Shown here: in pieces, positions 8,827 to 28,805 of the stretch | Layout: every line of letters starts with the position of its first letter | How positions within the stretch are numbered: the stretch's first letter is position 1 | DNA from: a virus | Lineage: Duplodnaviria; Caudoviricetes | Virus record (IMG/VR): IMGVR_UViG_3300035492_000032 | Span: 1-34,897 of that record | DNA: 34,897 nucleotides | Reading direction: 5' to 3' (one strand) | Notes under the pieces: generated by a model | The model's database searches: none | What the model was told of the DNA's origin: nothing | The model's input: the letters and a program-made list of their open reading frames with translations, nothing else | Made by a program: the position numbers and the translations under genes

Positions 8827-9044
8827 TGAGCCAGTACGCAGAGATTCGGCGGCTTGCCGAGCAGGAAATCGCACTTCGTGGTGGGGCTGACGAGAACGCC
8901 CGCACCGAGTGGTGCAAGGCAGTTAAGGCGCTGCGCAAGGCCGTGCCGGACTGGTCGGCTGTCGTGGTTGAGCTGGTGAACGAATTGGATCGCGTCGTCT
9001 GTGCTGACGGAAGCACCCAGCGCGGCGTAGGAGCACGGAAATGA
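8826..9044 (+). CDS. Hypothetical protein
   Basis: Overlaps both neighbours (translational coupling). Confidence 0.7.
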   Translation: MSQYAEIRRLAEQEIALRGGADENARTEWCKAVKALRKAVPDWSAVVVELVNELDRVVCADGSTQRGVGARK

Positions 9045-9820
9045 GCGAGGTACGCCTGATGCTCGGCGACTGCCTGGAGCGGATGAAGGAAATCGAGGCC
9101 GGTACCGTCGATCTGATCCTGGCCGACCTCCCGTACGGCACAACCCAATGCGCCTGGGATGAAGTGATACCGATGACTGCGCTGTGGGAGCAGTACCTGC
9201 GGGTCGCCAAGCCGGAGGCTGCAATCGTCCTGACGGCAGCACAGCCGTTCACATCCATGCTCGTGATGAGCCGGCCGGACCTGTTCCGCTACGAGTGGAT
9301 CTGGGAGAAGGGAAACGCCACCGGCTTCCTGAACGCCAAGAAGCAGCCAATGCGGGCGCACGAGTCGGCGTTGGTCTTCTACCGCAAGCAGCCAACCTAC
9401 AACCCGCAGATGACTGCCGGGCACGAGCGCAAGACTGCAAGCCGAAAGACCGTCAACTCCGAGTGCTACGGCAAGGCCATCAGCCTGACAAATTACGACT
9501 CGACAGAACGGTACCCGCGCAGCGTCCAGTTCTTCTCGAGCGACAAGCAGTCCGGCAACTACCACCCGACGCAGAAGCCTGTTGCGCTGATGGAATACCT
9601 GATCCGCACCTACGCGGTACCGGGCATGACCGTTCTGGATAACACCATGGGCAGCGGCACCACCGGAGTTGCCGCGCTGCGGTGTGGCTGCAACTTCATC
9701 GGCATCGAGCTTGACCCTTTCCATTTTGAAACTGGAACCGCGCGCATCGACGAAGAAGCAATTCGCCTAGCGACTCCGGTGCCGCAATTTGACCTGTTCG
9801 CCGAGGTGGCAAATGTCTGA
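9041..9820 (+). CDS. Orphan N4-C/N6-A DNA methyltransferase (beta class)
   Basis: DLPY catalytic motif, HPTQKP, VLDNTMGSGTTG SAM-binding motif; no REase nearby. Confidence 0.92.
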   Translation: MSEVRLMLGDCLERMKEIEAGTVDLILADLPYGTTQCAWDEVIPMTALWEQYLRVAKPEAAIVLTAAQPFTSMLVMSRPDLFRYEWIWEKGNATGFLNAKKQPMRAHESALVFYRKQPTYNPQMTAGHERKTASRKTVNSECYGKAISLTNYDSTERYPRSVQFFSSDKQSGNYHPTQKPVALMEYLIRTYAVPGMTVLDNTMGSGTTGVAALRCGCNFIGIELDPFHFETGTARIDEEAIRLATPVPQFDLFAEVANV

Positions 9821-12020: not shown

Positions 12021-13156
12021 TGGCCGCACGCAAGCACGACGACGAGACAATCAAGGCCGCGCTGGCTGGCCGCACTGTGGCAGAGGCTGCGCAGATCCTT
12101 GGGCTGCACGAGCGCAACGTATACACCCACAAGGCGCGTCTGGCTCGTCAGGGGTGGAGCCCGGAGCACGACATGGTGAAGACGGTGCCGGATGGCTTCC
12201 ATCTCAAGGGCACGTCGACGCTGTACGGCAAGGACGGCGAGCAGAAGCTGCAGTGGGTCAAGTCCAACATCGACCACGAGCGTCAGGCCGAGCTGATGAA
12301 GGAGGCGGTCAAGGCTCTTGCCCTGGACATCAAGCCGGCCAAGGCGCTGCCGGCACCTCTGCACACCCTTGCGCACCTGCTCAACTGCTACGTCATCACC
12401 GACTACCACCTCGGCATGAATGCCTGGGCAGAGGAGACGGGCGCGGCATGGGACATGAAAATCGCCGAGGACACGCTGGTAGGTTGGTTCGGCGCGGCGA
12501 TCGCCCAGGCGCCGGACTCACATACCGGCGTATTCGCCCAGCTTGGGGATCTGCTGCATTGGGATGGTATCCAGGCGGTCACCCCGACATCCGGCCACGT
12601 CCTCGACGCCGACACTCGCTTCCAGAAGCTGGTCCGCGTGGCAATCAGCGTCATCCGCCGCGTAACGGCCATGCTGCTGCAGAAGCACGATCGCGTCGTT
12701 CTCCTGATGGCTGAGGGCAACCACGACCTAGCATCGAGCGCCTGGCTGCGTGAACTGTTCGCCGCCCTGTATGCGGACGAGCCGCGCATCGAGGTCATCA
12801 CCCGCCCGGACCCGTATTACTGCATCGAGCATGGCCGCACGTCGCTGTTCTTCCACCACGGCCACAAGAAGCGGATGGACTCCCTTGAGACGGTGTTCAT
12901 CGCCAAGTTCCGCGAGGTCTTCGGCCGTACCAGGCACAGCTATGCGCACACCGGCCACCTGCACCACAACGTCCTGCGCGAGACGAACACCATGCAGATC
13001 GAGCAGCACCGCACCCTGGCCGCGCCAGACAGTCACGCGAGCCGCGGCGGGTGGATGAGCGGACGTGACGCCAAGGTCATCACCTACCACGCCGAGCACG
13101 GCGAAGTGGGCCGCATCATCGTTTCAGCCGACATGCTCAAGGGGGAAGCAGCATGA
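12020..13156 (+). CDS. HTH + calcineurin-like metallophosphoesterase
   Basis: N-terminal HTH; DYH, GDLLH, GNHD, HHGH, GHLH metal-binding motifs. Confidence 0.85.
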   Translation: MAARKHDDETIKAALAGRTVAEAAQILGLHERNVYTHKARLARQGWSPEHDMVKTVPDGFHLKGTSTLYGKDGEQKLQWVKSNIDHERQAELMKEAVKALALDIKPAKALPAPLHTLAHLLNCYVITDYHLGMNAWAEETGAAWDMKIAEDTLVGWFGAAIAQAPDSHTGVFAQLGDLLHWDGIQAVTPTSGHVLDADTRFQKLVRVAISVIRRVTAMLLQKHDRVVLLMAEGNHDLASSAWLRELFAALYADEPRIEVITRPDPYYCIEHGRTSLFFHHGHKKRMDSLETVFIAKFREVFGRTRHSYAHTGHLHHNVLRETNTMQIEQHRTLAAPDSHASRGGWMSGRDAKVITYHAEHGEVGRIIVSADMLKGEAA

Positions 13157-13698
13157 CCTATCGCAACGTGGTTTCCGCAGTAGTACGCGCCCTGGCGAGC
13201 GAAGTGATCAACTCGGCTGGTGGCTGTGACTTCCAACCGAAGGTGCAGGCCGCTCGTGTGCCGGGTGCGATCTGCGGCAAGGAAGAGGCGTTCCTGACTG
13301 ACTGCTGGGTGTTCTCACGCCTGCACACGATGCTGAGCCCTGAGCACTGGCGCGCATTGGTAGCGCAGTATTCGACTCATGCAGACCGCAAGCGCATTGC
13401 CATCACTGAGCTGGTCGGCACGATCCAGTCCCCGGCGCCGGTTCGGTTCATCAACTGCTGTGTGGTGACGTGGGCCTATCCGAAGCTTCCGGGCGCAGAA
13501 GGAAAACGCTCGACCAATGTGCTGCCGGCCGGGTGGTACAACATGGACAACTGGAGCGATGACCCGGTGCCTGTGAAAACGCAAGAGCGCTGGCGTCGTG
13601 ACATCCGCAAGGCGCTGAAGCAGGCCGTTGACCAGGCGCTGATCGAGGCGCACGAGATACTGGCTGCTGAGGGGTTGGTGGCAGGCGAGGCGGCGTGA
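13153..13698 (+). CDS. Probable late antiterminator (Q-like)
   Basis: Last gene of the nin region, ahead of a promoter/terminator pair and the holin; Pseudomonas-phage-type sequence. Confidence 0.6.
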   Translation: MTYRNVVSAVVRALASEVINSAGGCDFQPKVQAARVPGAICGKEEAFLTDCWVFSRLHTMLSPEHWRALVAQYSTHADRKRIAITELVGTIQSPAPVRFINCCVVTWAYPKLPGAEGKRSTNVLPAGWYNMDNWSDDPVPVKTQERWRRDIRKALKQAVDQALIEAHEILAAEGLVAGEAA

Positions 13699-13718
13699 AA
13701 TAAATTTGCGGAAATGTG

Positions 13719-13747
13719 TTGACGAGGAACAGCGTTCCGCATAATCT
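13719..13747 (+). promoter_or_regulatory. acr-aca promoter with Aca1-type inverted-repeat operator
   Basis: TTGACG (13719-13724), 17 bp, TAATCT (13742-13747); GGAAC-N3-GTTCC in the spacer (13726-13738); strong RBS AAGGAG. Confidence 0.85.
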
Positions 13748-13794
13748 AAACCCATGCCAGCCACAACGGCGAGGCGAAGCCAAGGAGAGACACC

Positions 13795-14052
13795 ATGACC
13801 ATCACCAAAATCATCATCACCAACGGCAACCCTGAGATCGGCGCAAATGCTACCGAGCAGGATCACGCTGAGTGGCGTAATGCGGCAGAACAAGCGCTGG
13901 CAAAGGCATACCCGAACGCTGAAATTGAAATCGGCCGCACCGACAGCATGAACAGCGTGCTCCGCCTGGAAAGCGACGACGAGGATGAAGAAGTTGGGCG
14001 CGACAGCCTCGCATATCAAGAAGCCATGCAGATCCTGGAGCGTATGTGGTAA
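13795..14052 (+). CDS. Candidate anti-CRISPR protein, AcrIC7-like
   Basis: 85 aa and acidic (18 D/E vs 7 K/R), directly upstream of aca1. TITKI...G...E.D...R...Q.LA...P.AEIEI...DS..SV pattern matches my recollection of AcrIC7. Confidence 0.75.
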   Translation: MTITKIIITNGNPEIGANATEQDHAEWRNAAEQALAKAYPNAEIEIGRTDSMNSVLRLESDDEDEEVGRDSLAYQEAMQILERMW

Positions 14053-14267
14053 GGCCTGACGCCAGTAATCACAATCCAGACCCGCGCTACCTGCGCGGGC
14101 TTCTGGAGCAGGCAGGGCTCAGCCAGCGAAAAGCGGCAGACTTGATCGGCATAACAGACAGAGCCATGCGGTACTACATGAGTGACGAGTCGAGCCCTAC
14201 ATTCCGCCCGGCGCCGTACCCGGTGCAGTTTGCCCTGGAATGTCTCGCGTCATGCAAAGGTAGTTGA
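14046..14267 (+). CDS. aca1: Anti-CRISPR-associated HTH repressor Aca1
   Basis: PDASNHNPDPRYLRGLL..AGLSQRKAADLIG..DRAMRYY...RPAPYPVQFALECLA closely matches Aca1 of Pseudomonas phages; GTG start with GGAG. Confidence 0.93.
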   Translation: MVRPDASNHNPDPRYLRGLLEQAGLSQRKAADLIGITDRAMRYYMSDESSPTFRPAPYPVQFALECLASCKGS

Positions 14268-14292
14268 CACGAATGAACCAATGAGCCATCCT
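14264..14292 (+). promoter_or_regulatory. Late promoter PR'-like with a direct repeat (candidate Q-binding element)
   Basis: TTGACA (14264-14269), 17 bp, CATCCT; the spacer holds AATGAACC-AATGAGCC. Confidence 0.6.
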
Positions 14293-14460
14293 ATGCCTAT
14301 CTTGGTCATTTCACGCGTTGAGATGGCCGAGAGCCGCGAGTCGTCCCGGTCCAATGTCGTTACGGGCGCGGCATACAGCGACACCTGCTGCGAAAGCGTC
14401 TGATCAGCGCAAGTAGGAAGTGGTGTGGCCTCAAGGGGGAGAGTCCTCTTGGACAATCCA

Positions 14461-14491
14461 AGAGCCCTGACTTAGGTCGGGGCTTTTTATT
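14461..14491 (+). terminator. tR'-like intrinsic terminator
   Basis: GCCCTGAC-TTAG-GTCGGGGC then TTTTTATT. Confidence 0.8.
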
Positions 14492-14633: not shown

Positions 14634-14662
14634 AAGCCTCGGCCATGTGTCGGGGCTTTCTT
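14634..14662 (+). terminator. Intrinsic terminator
   Basis: AAGCCTCGGC-loop-GTCGGGGCTTTCTT. Confidence 0.6.
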
Positions 14663-14678
14663 GCATCTGGAGTCAGCA

Positions 14679-14858
14679 ATGTTCGGATCACTCCTCAAGG
14701 CAGCACTCGCGCCGGTAGATATCGCGGTTGGTGTCGCCGCTGATGTGGTGACCCTGGGCGGCGCAATCACTGACCAGGACAAGCCATACACAGCGCAAGC
14801 AGCAGAACGGCTCATGGATAACGTCGAAGACGTGTTCGAGCCTGAATCCAAGCGCTAA
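14679..14858 (+). CDS. Small phage hypothetical protein (59 aa)
   Basis: RBS GGAG; MFGSLLKAALAPVDIAVGVAADVVTLGG... Confidence 0.7.
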   Translation: MFGSLLKAALAPVDIAVGVAADVVTLGGAITDQDKPYTAQAAERLMDNVEDVFEPESKR

Positions 14859-14961: not shown

Positions 14962-15282
14962 ATGCCCAAGATGCCCGAGAAAAGTCCAGAAGTATGGGCT
15001 GCGGTCCTCGCATGGCTGCACGCTATTGCGCCGAGCCTGTACGCGTTCTGTCTGTCCGTGACTATCGCCGTGCTGCGAGTCGTGTACGGGGGCGGAACTA
15101 AGCGGCAGATGGTGCTCGAGGGCGCCCTGTGTGGATTCGCCACGCTGACCCTGGTCCCGCTGCTCGAGTACTTCGGCCTCCCGCAGAGCATGGCTACGTT
15201 CGTCGGCGGTACCTGCGGATTTTTAGGAACGGAAAAGTTAAGAGATATGGCCGATAAAGTTATGGCAAAGAAGGGATATTGA
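14962..15282 (+). CDS. Holin, lambda S family, with M-P-K-M dual start
   Basis: Three hydrophobic segments; LRVVYGGG...LEGALCG...GFLG.EKLR; basic C-terminus. Confidence 0.9.
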   Translation: MPKMPEKSPEVWAAVLAWLHAIAPSLYAFCLSVTIAVLRVVYGGGTKRQMVLEGALCGFATLTLVPLLEYFGLPQSMATFVGGTCGFLGTEKLRDMADKVMAKKGY

Positions 15283-16097
15283 ATAAGCGAAGCGGTATAA
15301 TGACGAAGCCCGGAGTGCGCTAACACTGCCGGGCTTCTAATCACTACCTGATCGGTCGAGGATCACGGCAATGACTGACGCAAGTCTATCAGCGTTTTTG
15401 CACATATTCACCCGTAAGCAGGCCATTTCTAACGGCTTCAGGCACTACTTCACTGGCAAGCCGTGCAAGCGGGGGCACTATTCACTCCGAATGGTCAGCG
15501 GGAAGTGCCTCGCATGCGAGCCGGTTCATGCGCCGAGCAAGGAGCGCCGGGCTGCCCAGGGAGCGCGCTACTACCTCAAACATAAAGACCGTCTGCTTGA
15601 GCAGCAGCGAAACAAGTATAGGGCGAGCAGCGAAGCAAAAAAGGCTTCATCCAATAGGTGGCGGCTTGCTAACCATGAAAGAAAGCGCGAGGCGAACAGA
15701 GCCCATTACTTGGCGAACAAAGAGCGCTATCGGAAGCGTGGAGCCGAATGGGCTGAGAACAACCAAGAGCGCATGCGCGAAGCCGCCAAGAAGTGGCGTC
15801 AAGAAAATGCAGAGAGGGTCAGAGCGTCGAAGCGCAACAGAAAGGCCCTACTTCGCAAAGCCGAGGGCCTTCACACCGAGGAAGATATTCAGCGGCTTAT
15901 GGTGCTGCAGAGGTCCAAATGCGCACATTGCTCCCGATCTATCAAAAAAGAACGCCATGTTGATCACGTTATCCCGATTGCGCGTGGCGGCAGCAACTGG
16001 CCCGACAACCTCCAGCTTTTATGCCCTCACTGCAATATGAGCAAAGGTGCAAAGGACCCTTATGAGTGGAAGCAAGAGCGCGGAATGCTCCTTTAAA
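15229..16097 (+). mobile_element. HNH homing-endonuclease cassette inserted into the holin 3' end
   Basis: Holin tail is duplicated: TEKLRDMADKVMAKKGY* at 15229-15282 and TEKLRDLAIRWGEKKASA* at 16098-16154; the insert has lower GC. Confidence 0.75.
15371..16096 (+). CDS. HNH endonuclease (free-standing homing type)
   Basis: N-terminal YFTGKPCKRGH...CLAC, basic helical repeats, C-terminal CAHC...HVDHVIPIARGGSNWPDNLQLLCPHCNMSK. Confidence 0.92.
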   Translation: MTDASLSAFLHIFTRKQAISNGFRHYFTGKPCKRGHYSLRMVSGKCLACEPVHAPSKERRAAQGARYYLKHKDRLLEQQRNKYRASSEAKKASSNRWRLANHERKREANRAHYLANKERYRKRGAEWAENNQERMREAAKKWRQENAERVRASKRNRKALLRKAEGLHTEEDIQRLMVLQRSKCAHCSRSIKKERHVDHVIPIARGGSNWPDNLQLLCPHCNMSKGAKDPYEWKQERGMLL

Positions 16098-21988: not shown

Positions 21989-22501
21989 ATGAACAACGTC
22001 ATTCCGTTCCACTACCAGGGCCAGCCGGTGCGCTTCAATAGCGAGGGCTGGATCAATGCCACGGATGTGGCCAAGCGTTTCGGCAAGCGGCCAAACGACT
22101 GGATCGCACTGCCGTCGACAGCGCAGTACATAGAAGCGCTAAACCGCCACCTGTTTGGCGATACCGGAGAATCTGGTAACGACAAGCTGATCGTCTCTCG
22201 GCGCGGCGGGCGTGAGCAAGGCACGTGGTTGCACCCTAAGTTGGCTGTGGCGTTCGCCCGCTGGCTCGATGTGGACTTTGCGGTCTGGTGTGACCTTCAT
22301 ATCGACGCCCTGCTGCGCGGCGAGCTGACCGAAAAGCAGCAGTTCGACCGAGCCTGCAAGGCTCTTTCCGATGCAAGCGATATCGCCAGCCTGAGTGGCA
22401 GCGAACTTGCCAAATTCCGCTGGCGCAAGCCTGGACTGATTGCTCAGGTCGAGCACTGGCGCGAGCAGCTGCAAATGACATTGGGACTTGAGGCCGCATA
22501 A
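21989..22501 (+). CDS. KilA-N domain protein (antirepressor-like moron)
   Basis: GWINATDVAKRFGKRPNDW...GTWLHPKLAVAFARWL. Confidence 0.92.
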   Translation: MNNVIPFHYQGQPVRFNSEGWINATDVAKRFGKRPNDWIALPSTAQYIEALNRHLFGDTGESGNDKLIVSRRGGREQGTWLHPKLAVAFARWLDVDFAVWCDLHIDALLRGELTEKQQFDRACKALSDASDIASLSGSELAKFRWRKPGLIAQVEHWREQLQMTLGLEAA

Positions 22502-28427: not shown

Positions 28428-28805
28428 ATGCGTAACATTATTGCAGTTTTGCTATTTGCGCTGACCCTGGCTGGCTGCGCTAACAATCGTATCGACTACA
28501 ACCAGAAGTCCATGAACCTATCGCTGGGTATGTCTAAAGCCGACGTGCAGGCTGTCATGGGGCTCCCGCGAAGAACGGATGTAAATCAGGATCGTGAACG
28601 CTGGATCTACTGGAACCCGGTCATGATGGGGTTCACGCCTGTAGACAACGAGCAGCTGGCCCAAGATCGACTCGTGGTCACGTTCGAGGATGGCAAGGTG
28701 GCGCGATGGGGTAACCAGACCCTCACCGATGACATGCTGGAGGCGAGCCAGAAGTCGATCGAATCGTCGTACAAAGTTATGCAGCAGGGCTCGCCGCCTA
28801 AGTAG
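28428..28805 (+). CDS. Moron lipoprotein, BamE/SmpA-OmlA-like
   Basis: Lipobox LAGC; LSLGMSKADVQAVMGLP...WIY...LVVTFEDGKV. Confidence 0.8.
   Translation: MRNIIAVLLFALTLAGCANNRIDYNQKSMNLSLGMSKADVQAVMGLPRRTDVNQDRERWIYWNPVMMGFTPVDNEQLAQDRLVVTFEDGKVARWGNQTLTDDMLEASQKSIESSYKVMQQGSPPK

Follow-up and report, generated by a model that had tools for sequence, protein, structure and literature searches.

Anti-CRISPRs (Acrs) of the AcrIC7 family act on Cascade, the effector of type I CRISPR (short palindromic repeats that are clustered and regularly interspaced) systems, and have been reported with two different spectra. According to Leon et al. (PMC7913775), AcrIC7Pst of Stutzerimonas stutzeri, whose accession they give as WP_003294373.1, relieves CRISPR interference (CRISPRi) in both type I-C and type I-E, while AcrIC7Pae is encoded next to aca1 (anti-CRISPR-associated 1), is 37% identical to AcrIC7Pst, and inhibits type I-E but not type I-C. 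The AcrIC7 proteins of S. stutzeri and P. citronellolis (WP_074980466.1) are found with acrIC6 and aca4 or aca10 and inhibit types I-C and I-E; the 88% reported by Leon et al. for the P. citronellolis protein was reproduced here. The present work concerns an acr-aca1 cassette in a window of 34,897 nt (the whole stretch of viral DNA that was analysed; IMG/VR record IMGVR_UViG_3300035492_000032). Its acidic 85-amino-acid (aa) open reading frame (ORF), ORF85, groups in a short clade of the AcrIC7 family and, as judged from sequence comparison, forms with aca1 an operon that likely blocks DNA binding by type I-E Cascade and would then likely be shut off by Aca1. The insert and its genes are as follows.

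13699..14273, + strand: accessory insert (the acr-aca1 cassette), between a Q-like gene and a late-promoter-like region
13782..13789, + strand: ribosome-binding site of ORF85, read from the sequence
13795..14052, + strand: ORF85, acidic 85-aa protein (isoelectric point 4.23; 18 D/E versus 7 K/R)
14046..14267, + strand: aca1 homologue, a 73-aa helix-turn-helix (HTH) repressor (GTG start; GGAG at 14037-14040; 7-nt overlap with the end of ORF85)

ORF85 and the Two Clades of AcrIC7

ORF85 has a net charge of -11, with eight acidic residues in positions 56-71, and no match was found for it in Pfam, PHROG, or NCBIfam, nor a sequence match in the Protein Data Bank (PDB). Fourteen relatives are listed at 51-94% identity, and a profile built from nine of them was searched blind against 1.84 billion representatives. 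Of the five matches returned, the fourth (E 1.4e-5) was the cluster containing WP_003294373.1. Comparison of ORF85 with that protein gave 26/63 identities (41%) over residues 2-63 by BLASTP and an hhalign value of 97.4%; none of 5000 shuffles reached the score of the pair, and the C-terminal parts alone scored at chance level (1621/5000 shuffles). An earlier sequence-only reading of this DNA had noted a likeness to AcrIC7 in the N-terminal two-thirds and divergence beyond it. The profile search, BLASTP, hhalign, and shuffles agree on exactly that picture, with a homologous N-terminal part and a C-terminus unrelated in sequence. Neither ORF85 nor AcrIC7 was found by tblastn of annotated phages, and neither AcrIC7 nor P0057, a P. 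aeruginosa relative discussed below, by tblastn of plasmids.

AlphaFold2 predicted a beta-alpha-beta-beta-alpha order for both ORF85 and AcrIC7 (mean predicted local distance difference test scores of 77 and 89), with a shorter last helix in the ORF85 model (residues 72-84 versus 67-87). The two models are not fully independent, since short-clade rows were part of the alignment from which AcrIC7 was modelled. The AcrIC7 proteins of S. stutzeri and P. citronellolis resemble ORF85 in the 41% stretch over residues 2-63, in predicted fold order, and in acidity, and differ from it in their length of 94 aa, longer last helix, and CPWxW tail.

In trees the family falls into two clades, a long one of 93-95 aa with a CPWxW tail and a short one of 81-85 aa with an ERxW end (support 98/95 and 96/92, the latter for the branch that separates them). 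The longer C-terminal helix and the tail occur in all 23 long-clade sequences, and both are absent from ORF85. Long-clade proteins combine 93-95 aa, the long last helix, and the CPWxW tail with at least 65% identity; ORF85 has 85 aa, no tail, and 41% local identity, and it groups in the short clade by its short ERxW end and its full-length homology to the P. aeruginosa member. The AcrIC7 family is thereby sorted into two clades, and the split matches the published difference in spectrum.

The P. aeruginosa Clade-Mate

ORF85 is 72% identical to the P. aeruginosa protein P0057 over all 85 residues and has the same net charge (-11, given for the near-identical P0006). Among the cluster members examined, no other short-clade protein carries the name P. 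aeruginosa; in ORF85's own cluster, 15 of 29 members were listed and none of the 29 is named. P0057 shows 23/62 identities (37%) with AcrIC7Pst, and its gene lies directly before aca1 in locus L009. Taken together, the species, the 37% identity, and the aca1 adjacency make it very probable that P0057 (NCBI entries such as HBP0833465.1) is the AcrIC7Pae tested by Leon et al. (PMC7913775), which would then be like ORF85 in its short clade, its place beside aca1, and its leader. The two loci differ in the recognition helix of Aca1 (TDRAMRYY here, SARMMRYY in L009) and in the operator (GGAAC here, GGCAG in L009).

The diverged C-terminus had led the sequence-only reading to propose a new variant with a different spectrum. 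That proposal is not supported, as the diverged end defines the whole short clade, including P0057, which fits the I-E-only AcrIC7Pae. Moreover, the supplement of Shehreen et al. 2022 (PMC9410906) contains an entry, SEQ_3354_2, labelled 'AcrIC7|Aca1', whose 400-nt upstream region is nearly identical to the window and has the same operator arms. The label is computational only, and the cassette had therefore already been flagged in that manner. It is most likely, for the most part, a further example of an acr-aca1 kind already described, close to a protein that has likely been tested. What it adds, from Pseudomonas-type phages of the environment, is a natural protein 72% identical to an inhibitor that is likely I-E-only.

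Evidence for a Probable Type I-E Target

A first line of evidence is the cargo carried in the same slot by sister phages. In L066, L072, L105, and L056, the same promoter and aca1 accompany a 52-aa gene whose product is identical at 40/52 positions to orf31 of phage D3112, and the D3112 orf31 sequence equals AcrIE4 in a published table when compared by eye (PMC10799925). L109 has an AcrIE5-like gene in the slot, also by by-eye comparison. The remaining cargo was unrecognised, and that which can be recognised points to type I-E.

A second line of evidence is a spacer from the environment that matches the holin gene of the window.

15100..15134, + strand: AAG protospacer adjacent motif (PAM) and protospacer in the holin gene, matched by a spacer of type I-E type

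In soil run X16, an 88-nt contig consists of a repeat, 33 nt matching 15102-15134 with one mismatch, and a repeat; the same run contains contigs of a cassette closely related to this one. At 15100-15102 the window has AAG, which is a type I-E PAM. Allowing one mismatch, the X16 repeat was located in 15 of 151 genomes from the P. paralcaligenes family, and 12 of these 15 have a Cas8e match as against 25/151 overall, with arrays within ~6 kb of cas8e. The holin protospacer is also present within one mismatch in L056, L067, L109, and L110. The spacer, known from one low-depth contig, shows CRISPR pressure on the phage lineage, not on the exact phage. None of 116 spacers from ten partly retrieved I-E array loci matched within five mismatches, and in four runs none of the 24 loose ends listed, out of 141, was another end flanked by repeats.

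Proposed Mechanism and Alternatives

It is very likely, going by homology and gene order, that ORF85 is an anti-CRISPR of a type I system, and type I-E activity can be predicted for it with good confidence. Upon DNA entry, the host sigma-70 polymerase would fire the cassette promoter, and ORF85 would bind Cascade as an acidic competitor of DNA, most likely at the PAM-reading site of Cas8e. Aca1, translationally coupled to ORF85, would then accumulate and bind GGAAC-N3-GTTCC between the promoter boxes as well as the 5' hairpin. As the insert carries no terminator, this repression could also limit read-through towards the late promoter and the lysis genes.

The proposed competition with DNA draws on three observations. 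AcrIC7Pst relieves CRISPRi in I-C and I-E and so blocks DNA binding by Cascade (PMC7913775); ORF85 is acidic, as a DNA mimic may be; and AcrIE4 binds the PAM site of Cas8e through acidic residues (PMC8887544). These suggest DNA-competitive binding to I-E Cascade and, given I-E activity, roughly an even chance that Cas8e is the contact.

Several points weigh against this account. P0057 is equated with AcrIC7Pae on indirect grounds, and several other short-clade proteins are also 35-38% identical to AcrIC7Pst. Orthologues can differ, as the long and short AcrIC7 clades themselves do in spectrum. The spacer is a single contig of low depth (2.6) from a sample holding a relative rather than the exact phage. 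The CRISPRi result belongs to AcrIC7Pst, not to the short clade; AcrIE9 reportedly binds Cas7e instead; and the PDB search found no AcrIC7 structure or target subunit. Finally, Thr replaces Ser42 and Ala replaces Val45 in the Aca1 encoded here.

The strongest alternative is that ORF85 is a dual I-C/I-E inhibitor like AcrIC7Pst, or has some other widened spectrum. No short-clade member comes closer to AcrIC7Pst in the N-terminal part (41%); 28% of positions are different from P0057, above all in the loop after strand 1 and in a more acidic loop, ESDDEDEE; and acidic Acrs often cross subtypes (PMC7913775). Nevertheless, ORF85 is without the long last helix and CPWxW tail, its C-terminal similarity is at chance, its probable tested clade-mate is I-E-only, and what can be recognised of the slot's alternative cargo belongs to type I-E. 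A dual or otherwise widened spectrum is accordingly judged improbable, and so is activity on type I-C as such.

Less probable still is that ORF85, under Aca1 control, has some other target and serves in counter-defence or modulates the host, for instance by acting on RecA in the manner of DinI. DinI (PDB 7ywa_A; Pfam PF06183) is the best structural match for the predicted folds of both AcrIC7 clades, and DinI and ORF85 are both small acidic alpha/beta proteins. No Foldseek match fell under E 0.001 in the PDB or BFVD, none of 13 AcrIC7-family members matched PF06183 at E up to 10, and no DinI sequence was present in the 201 genomes searched. DinI is also only 8-15% identical to ORF85, whose acidic residues cluster in the loop before the last helix, and its target is RecA. 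DinI has itself been treated as a DNA mimic (PMC13192584), and its likeness to the AcrIC7 clades was not found in print. 

Separately from these alternatives, it is conceivable, tentatively and from the models, that AcrIC7 proteins mimic DNA by means of a DinI-type fold, a scaffold of RecA modulators turned against Cascade, to which the long last helix and CPWxW tail add I-C activity. If so, ORF85 and AcrIC7Pst would be a natural pair for mapping subtype specificity, and a DinI-like fold, if confirmed, would provide the first structural family and origin for AcrIC7.

That ORF85 restrains the phage's own IscB, as the sequence-only reading had wondered, is scarcely credible: the window does carry an IscB gene (204-1547, - strand; NCBIfam 446 bits, cut-off 175) with a HEARO/omega RNA upstream of it (1603-1835, - strand), but this lies 12 kb from ORF85, AcrIC7 acts on an effector unrelated to IscB, and none of five sister records has a full-length IscB or a match over the cut-off, which makes the window's IscB probably a recent insertion, while three of the five (98-100% complete) carry an ORF85-clade gene.

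Promoter, Operator, and Leader

The promoter boxes, operator, leader, acidic 85-aa ORF, and HTH gene all lie where the sequence-only reading had placed them.

13710..13722, + strand: second, degenerate site resembling an operator, GGAAA-TGT-GTTGA, read from the sequence; it overlaps the -35 box
13719..13724, + strand: predicted -35 box TTGACG (17-nt spacer; same register as related acr promoters)
13726..13738, no strand assigned: predicted Aca1 operator GGAAC-AGC-GTTCC, a perfect 5-bp inverted repeat with an N3 centre, in the promoter spacer
13742..13747, + strand: predicted -10 box TAATCT (transcription would start at ~13753-13754)
13756..13775, + strand: two-tier RNA hairpin GCC-A-GCC-ACAAC-GGC-GA-GGC (3+3 bp by fold; ends 19 nt before the ATG)

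A consensus promoter scan found none here and did not call the cassette promoter, TAATCT matching 3/6 consensus positions. The box is nonetheless a recurrent one: it stands 6 nt before the leader, which starts at 13753, in 15 of 33 distinct upstream regions sharing that leader, D3112 included, and these regions have a TTG-type box 17 nt further upstream. Matches to the DNA between the -10 box and the start codon, both included, occur in 129 phage records, 127 from Pseudomonas, and in many of these an annotated anti-CRISPR gene follows immediately. As for the operator, GG[A/C]AC-N3-GT[T/G]CC has a single match in the window; the expected number is 3e-5 for the promoter spacer and 0.21 for the window as a whole. 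The degenerate second site resembles in position the upstream repeat of D3112-type promoters, and its function is doubtful.

Published work describes a 5' untranslated region (UTR) hairpin motif that precedes 207 acr-aca1 operons, consisting of a 3+3 bp hairpin just after the start site and ending ~20 nt before the acr start codon, which JBD30 Aca1 binds at ~61 nM (PMC13551039). By its sequence and fold, the cassette leader matches this Aca1-bound RNA motif; its stems are kept and its loops vary among related loci. A leaderless upstream peptide was also considered, as the leader begins with ATG and many loci have a 14-codon frame that overlaps the acr start. Other loci differ in frame and length, the conservation of the leader is explained by the RNA hairpin, and the peptide was therefore rejected.

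Compared with the acr-aca1 operons of JBD30, D3112, and BUCT566, the cassette shares the -10 box, the RNA hairpin leader, four key base-reading residues of Aca1, and an operator in the promoter spacer. It differs in that the operator is GGAAC rather than GGCAC and lies 3 nt further upstream, in that the second site is only degenerate, and in its position, which in this lambdoid phage is flanked by a Q-like gene and the lysis region rather than by Mu-like head genes. Overall, knowledge of acr-aca1 operons is unchanged by it.

The aca1 Gene and Operator Specificity

Recognition of the HTH protein as Aca1 was well founded, for it matches PDB 7c0g at E 4.5e-30 over residues 3-69 and is identical to a JBD30-type copy at 46/66 positions; the expected operon layout, with a candidate acr directly upstream of aca1, is likewise borne out by the gene order. 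JBD30 Aca1 reads GGCAC half-sites via R44, V45, R47, Y48, and R59, with the cytosines contributing less; the V45A protein still repressed, S42A nearly abolished binding, and uncontrolled acr transcription lowers the survival of the phage (PMC8633003), which may be why a repressor is carried along with the acr. The Aca1 of the cassette keeps R44, R47, Y48, and R59, the changes being Val45 to Ala and Ser42 to Thr.

The position at which GGAAC departs from the JBD30 GGCAC is one described as contributing less. Of 36 distinct rows that pair a promoter with a helix, 15 show perfect GGAAC arms and nine show perfect GGCAC arms, and GGAAC is also found with Val45 proteins (L018, L038, L044, and, in imperfect form, L035), the operator of L052 being mixed. 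Being frequent and also paired with Val45, GGAAC is a common variant and not a new specificity. A specificity switch pairing Ala45 with GGAAC was tried and rejected: raw counts of 8/4 versus 0/9 gave p 0.005 and, after near-copies were collapsed by hand, p 0.47, in a table of 21 of the 36 rows that omits rows with other helices and leaves the mixed row uncounted. The Aca10 paper (PMC9410881) was set aside, as it describes a different operator.

Aca1 variants with the helix SWPGFRNY, found in L001 (1450-2055; phage BUCT566), L016, L027, L029, L043, and L048, have no GG[A/C]AC operator and keep the RNA leader. They are probably, from these sequence features, a true DNA-specificity variant of Aca1.

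The Insertion Site

With 34.9 kb and 61% G+C, the window represents a temperate phage of lambdoid type in which repressor, cro, cII, and replication genes are followed by holin, terminase, head, and tail genes. Pseudomonas phages make up 146/147 records with a DNA match around the cassette.

13153..13698, + strand: flanking 181-aa gene (PHROG 3412, unknown function), Q-antiterminator-like by position only
14264..14334, + strand: late-promoter-like element and hairpin, common to empty-site phages, with a presumed promoter role
14460..14491, + strand: predicted intrinsic terminator, the first downstream of the cassette (fold of -18.5 kcal/mol, then a T run; missed by the terminator scan)

The Q-like role of the 181-aa gene is suggested by lambdoid gene order. 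In the sister phage L067, whose upstream gene is 94% identical, 57 unrelated nt replace the insert, and the sequence rejoins the window at 14274, with 60/61 bases identical across 14274-14334. L081, L082, and L085 are empty too, the stop of the upstream gene running almost directly into the 14274-14334 element. Because these four phages join the upstream gene almost directly to that element, the insert can be delimited as 13699 to ~14273. Among 49 viral loci with a relative of the 181-aa gene (two of them without downstream DNA), an aca1-like gene lies downstream in nine, four of which have ORF85. Clearly, the insert is swapped among sister phages, and cassettes are exchanged at a hotspot that lies between the Q-like gene and the lysis region.

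The sequence-only reading had called the cassette self-contained. This stands for the promoter, which is the insert's own, and fails for the terminator, none being present after aca1 within the insert. A TTGACA overlaps the aca1 stop codon and likely serves the phage's downstream promoter. Contigs of four RNA libraries cover relatives of the cassette; such contigs do not show transcription, strand, or start.

Mobility and Other Genes

ORF85-clade genes also occur without aca1 in the filamentous phages L003 (1057-1397), L005, and L010, where the similarity begins within the leader hairpin and ends near window position 14099. In the tailed prophages L012 (5870-6723) and L013 (5845-7205), short-clade AcrIC7 genes stand behind a different perfect operator, GGTGCACC-ATT-GGTGCACC, and an Aca1-type hairpin is kept through paired changes; within the prophage, the L013 genes are placed much as AcrIC7Pst is in L060. 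Downstream in both lies a gene of 131-134 aa that belongs to no Pfam family and is possibly an unnamed Aca regulator.

In L061 (1895-3203) and L062 (3102-4410) the slot is filled by another cassette, of three genes without family matches, which has a palindrome of its own between the promoter boxes. The final gene of this cassette shares its terminal residues with the Aca1 of the window, which suggests a shared 3' recombination point. Small genes of ~73, 97, 70, and 76 aa lie in the acr slot of L063 (3094-3902), L068 (3143-3355), and L109 (221-875), with Aca1 variants that have a different recognition helix, and are candidates for new inhibitors.

Elsewhere in the window are genes for a DNA methyltransferase (9041-9820), an HNH endonuclease (15371-16096), and a KilA-N protein (21989-22501); the methyltransferase may be variably present, as contigs in runs X1 and X2 skip ~9045-9818. 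An accessory 65-aa gene (PHROG 33676; 14661-14858), skipped in related contigs, lies between the terminator and the holin gene, and an accessory BamE-like lipoprotein gene (28428-28805) lies in the tail region.
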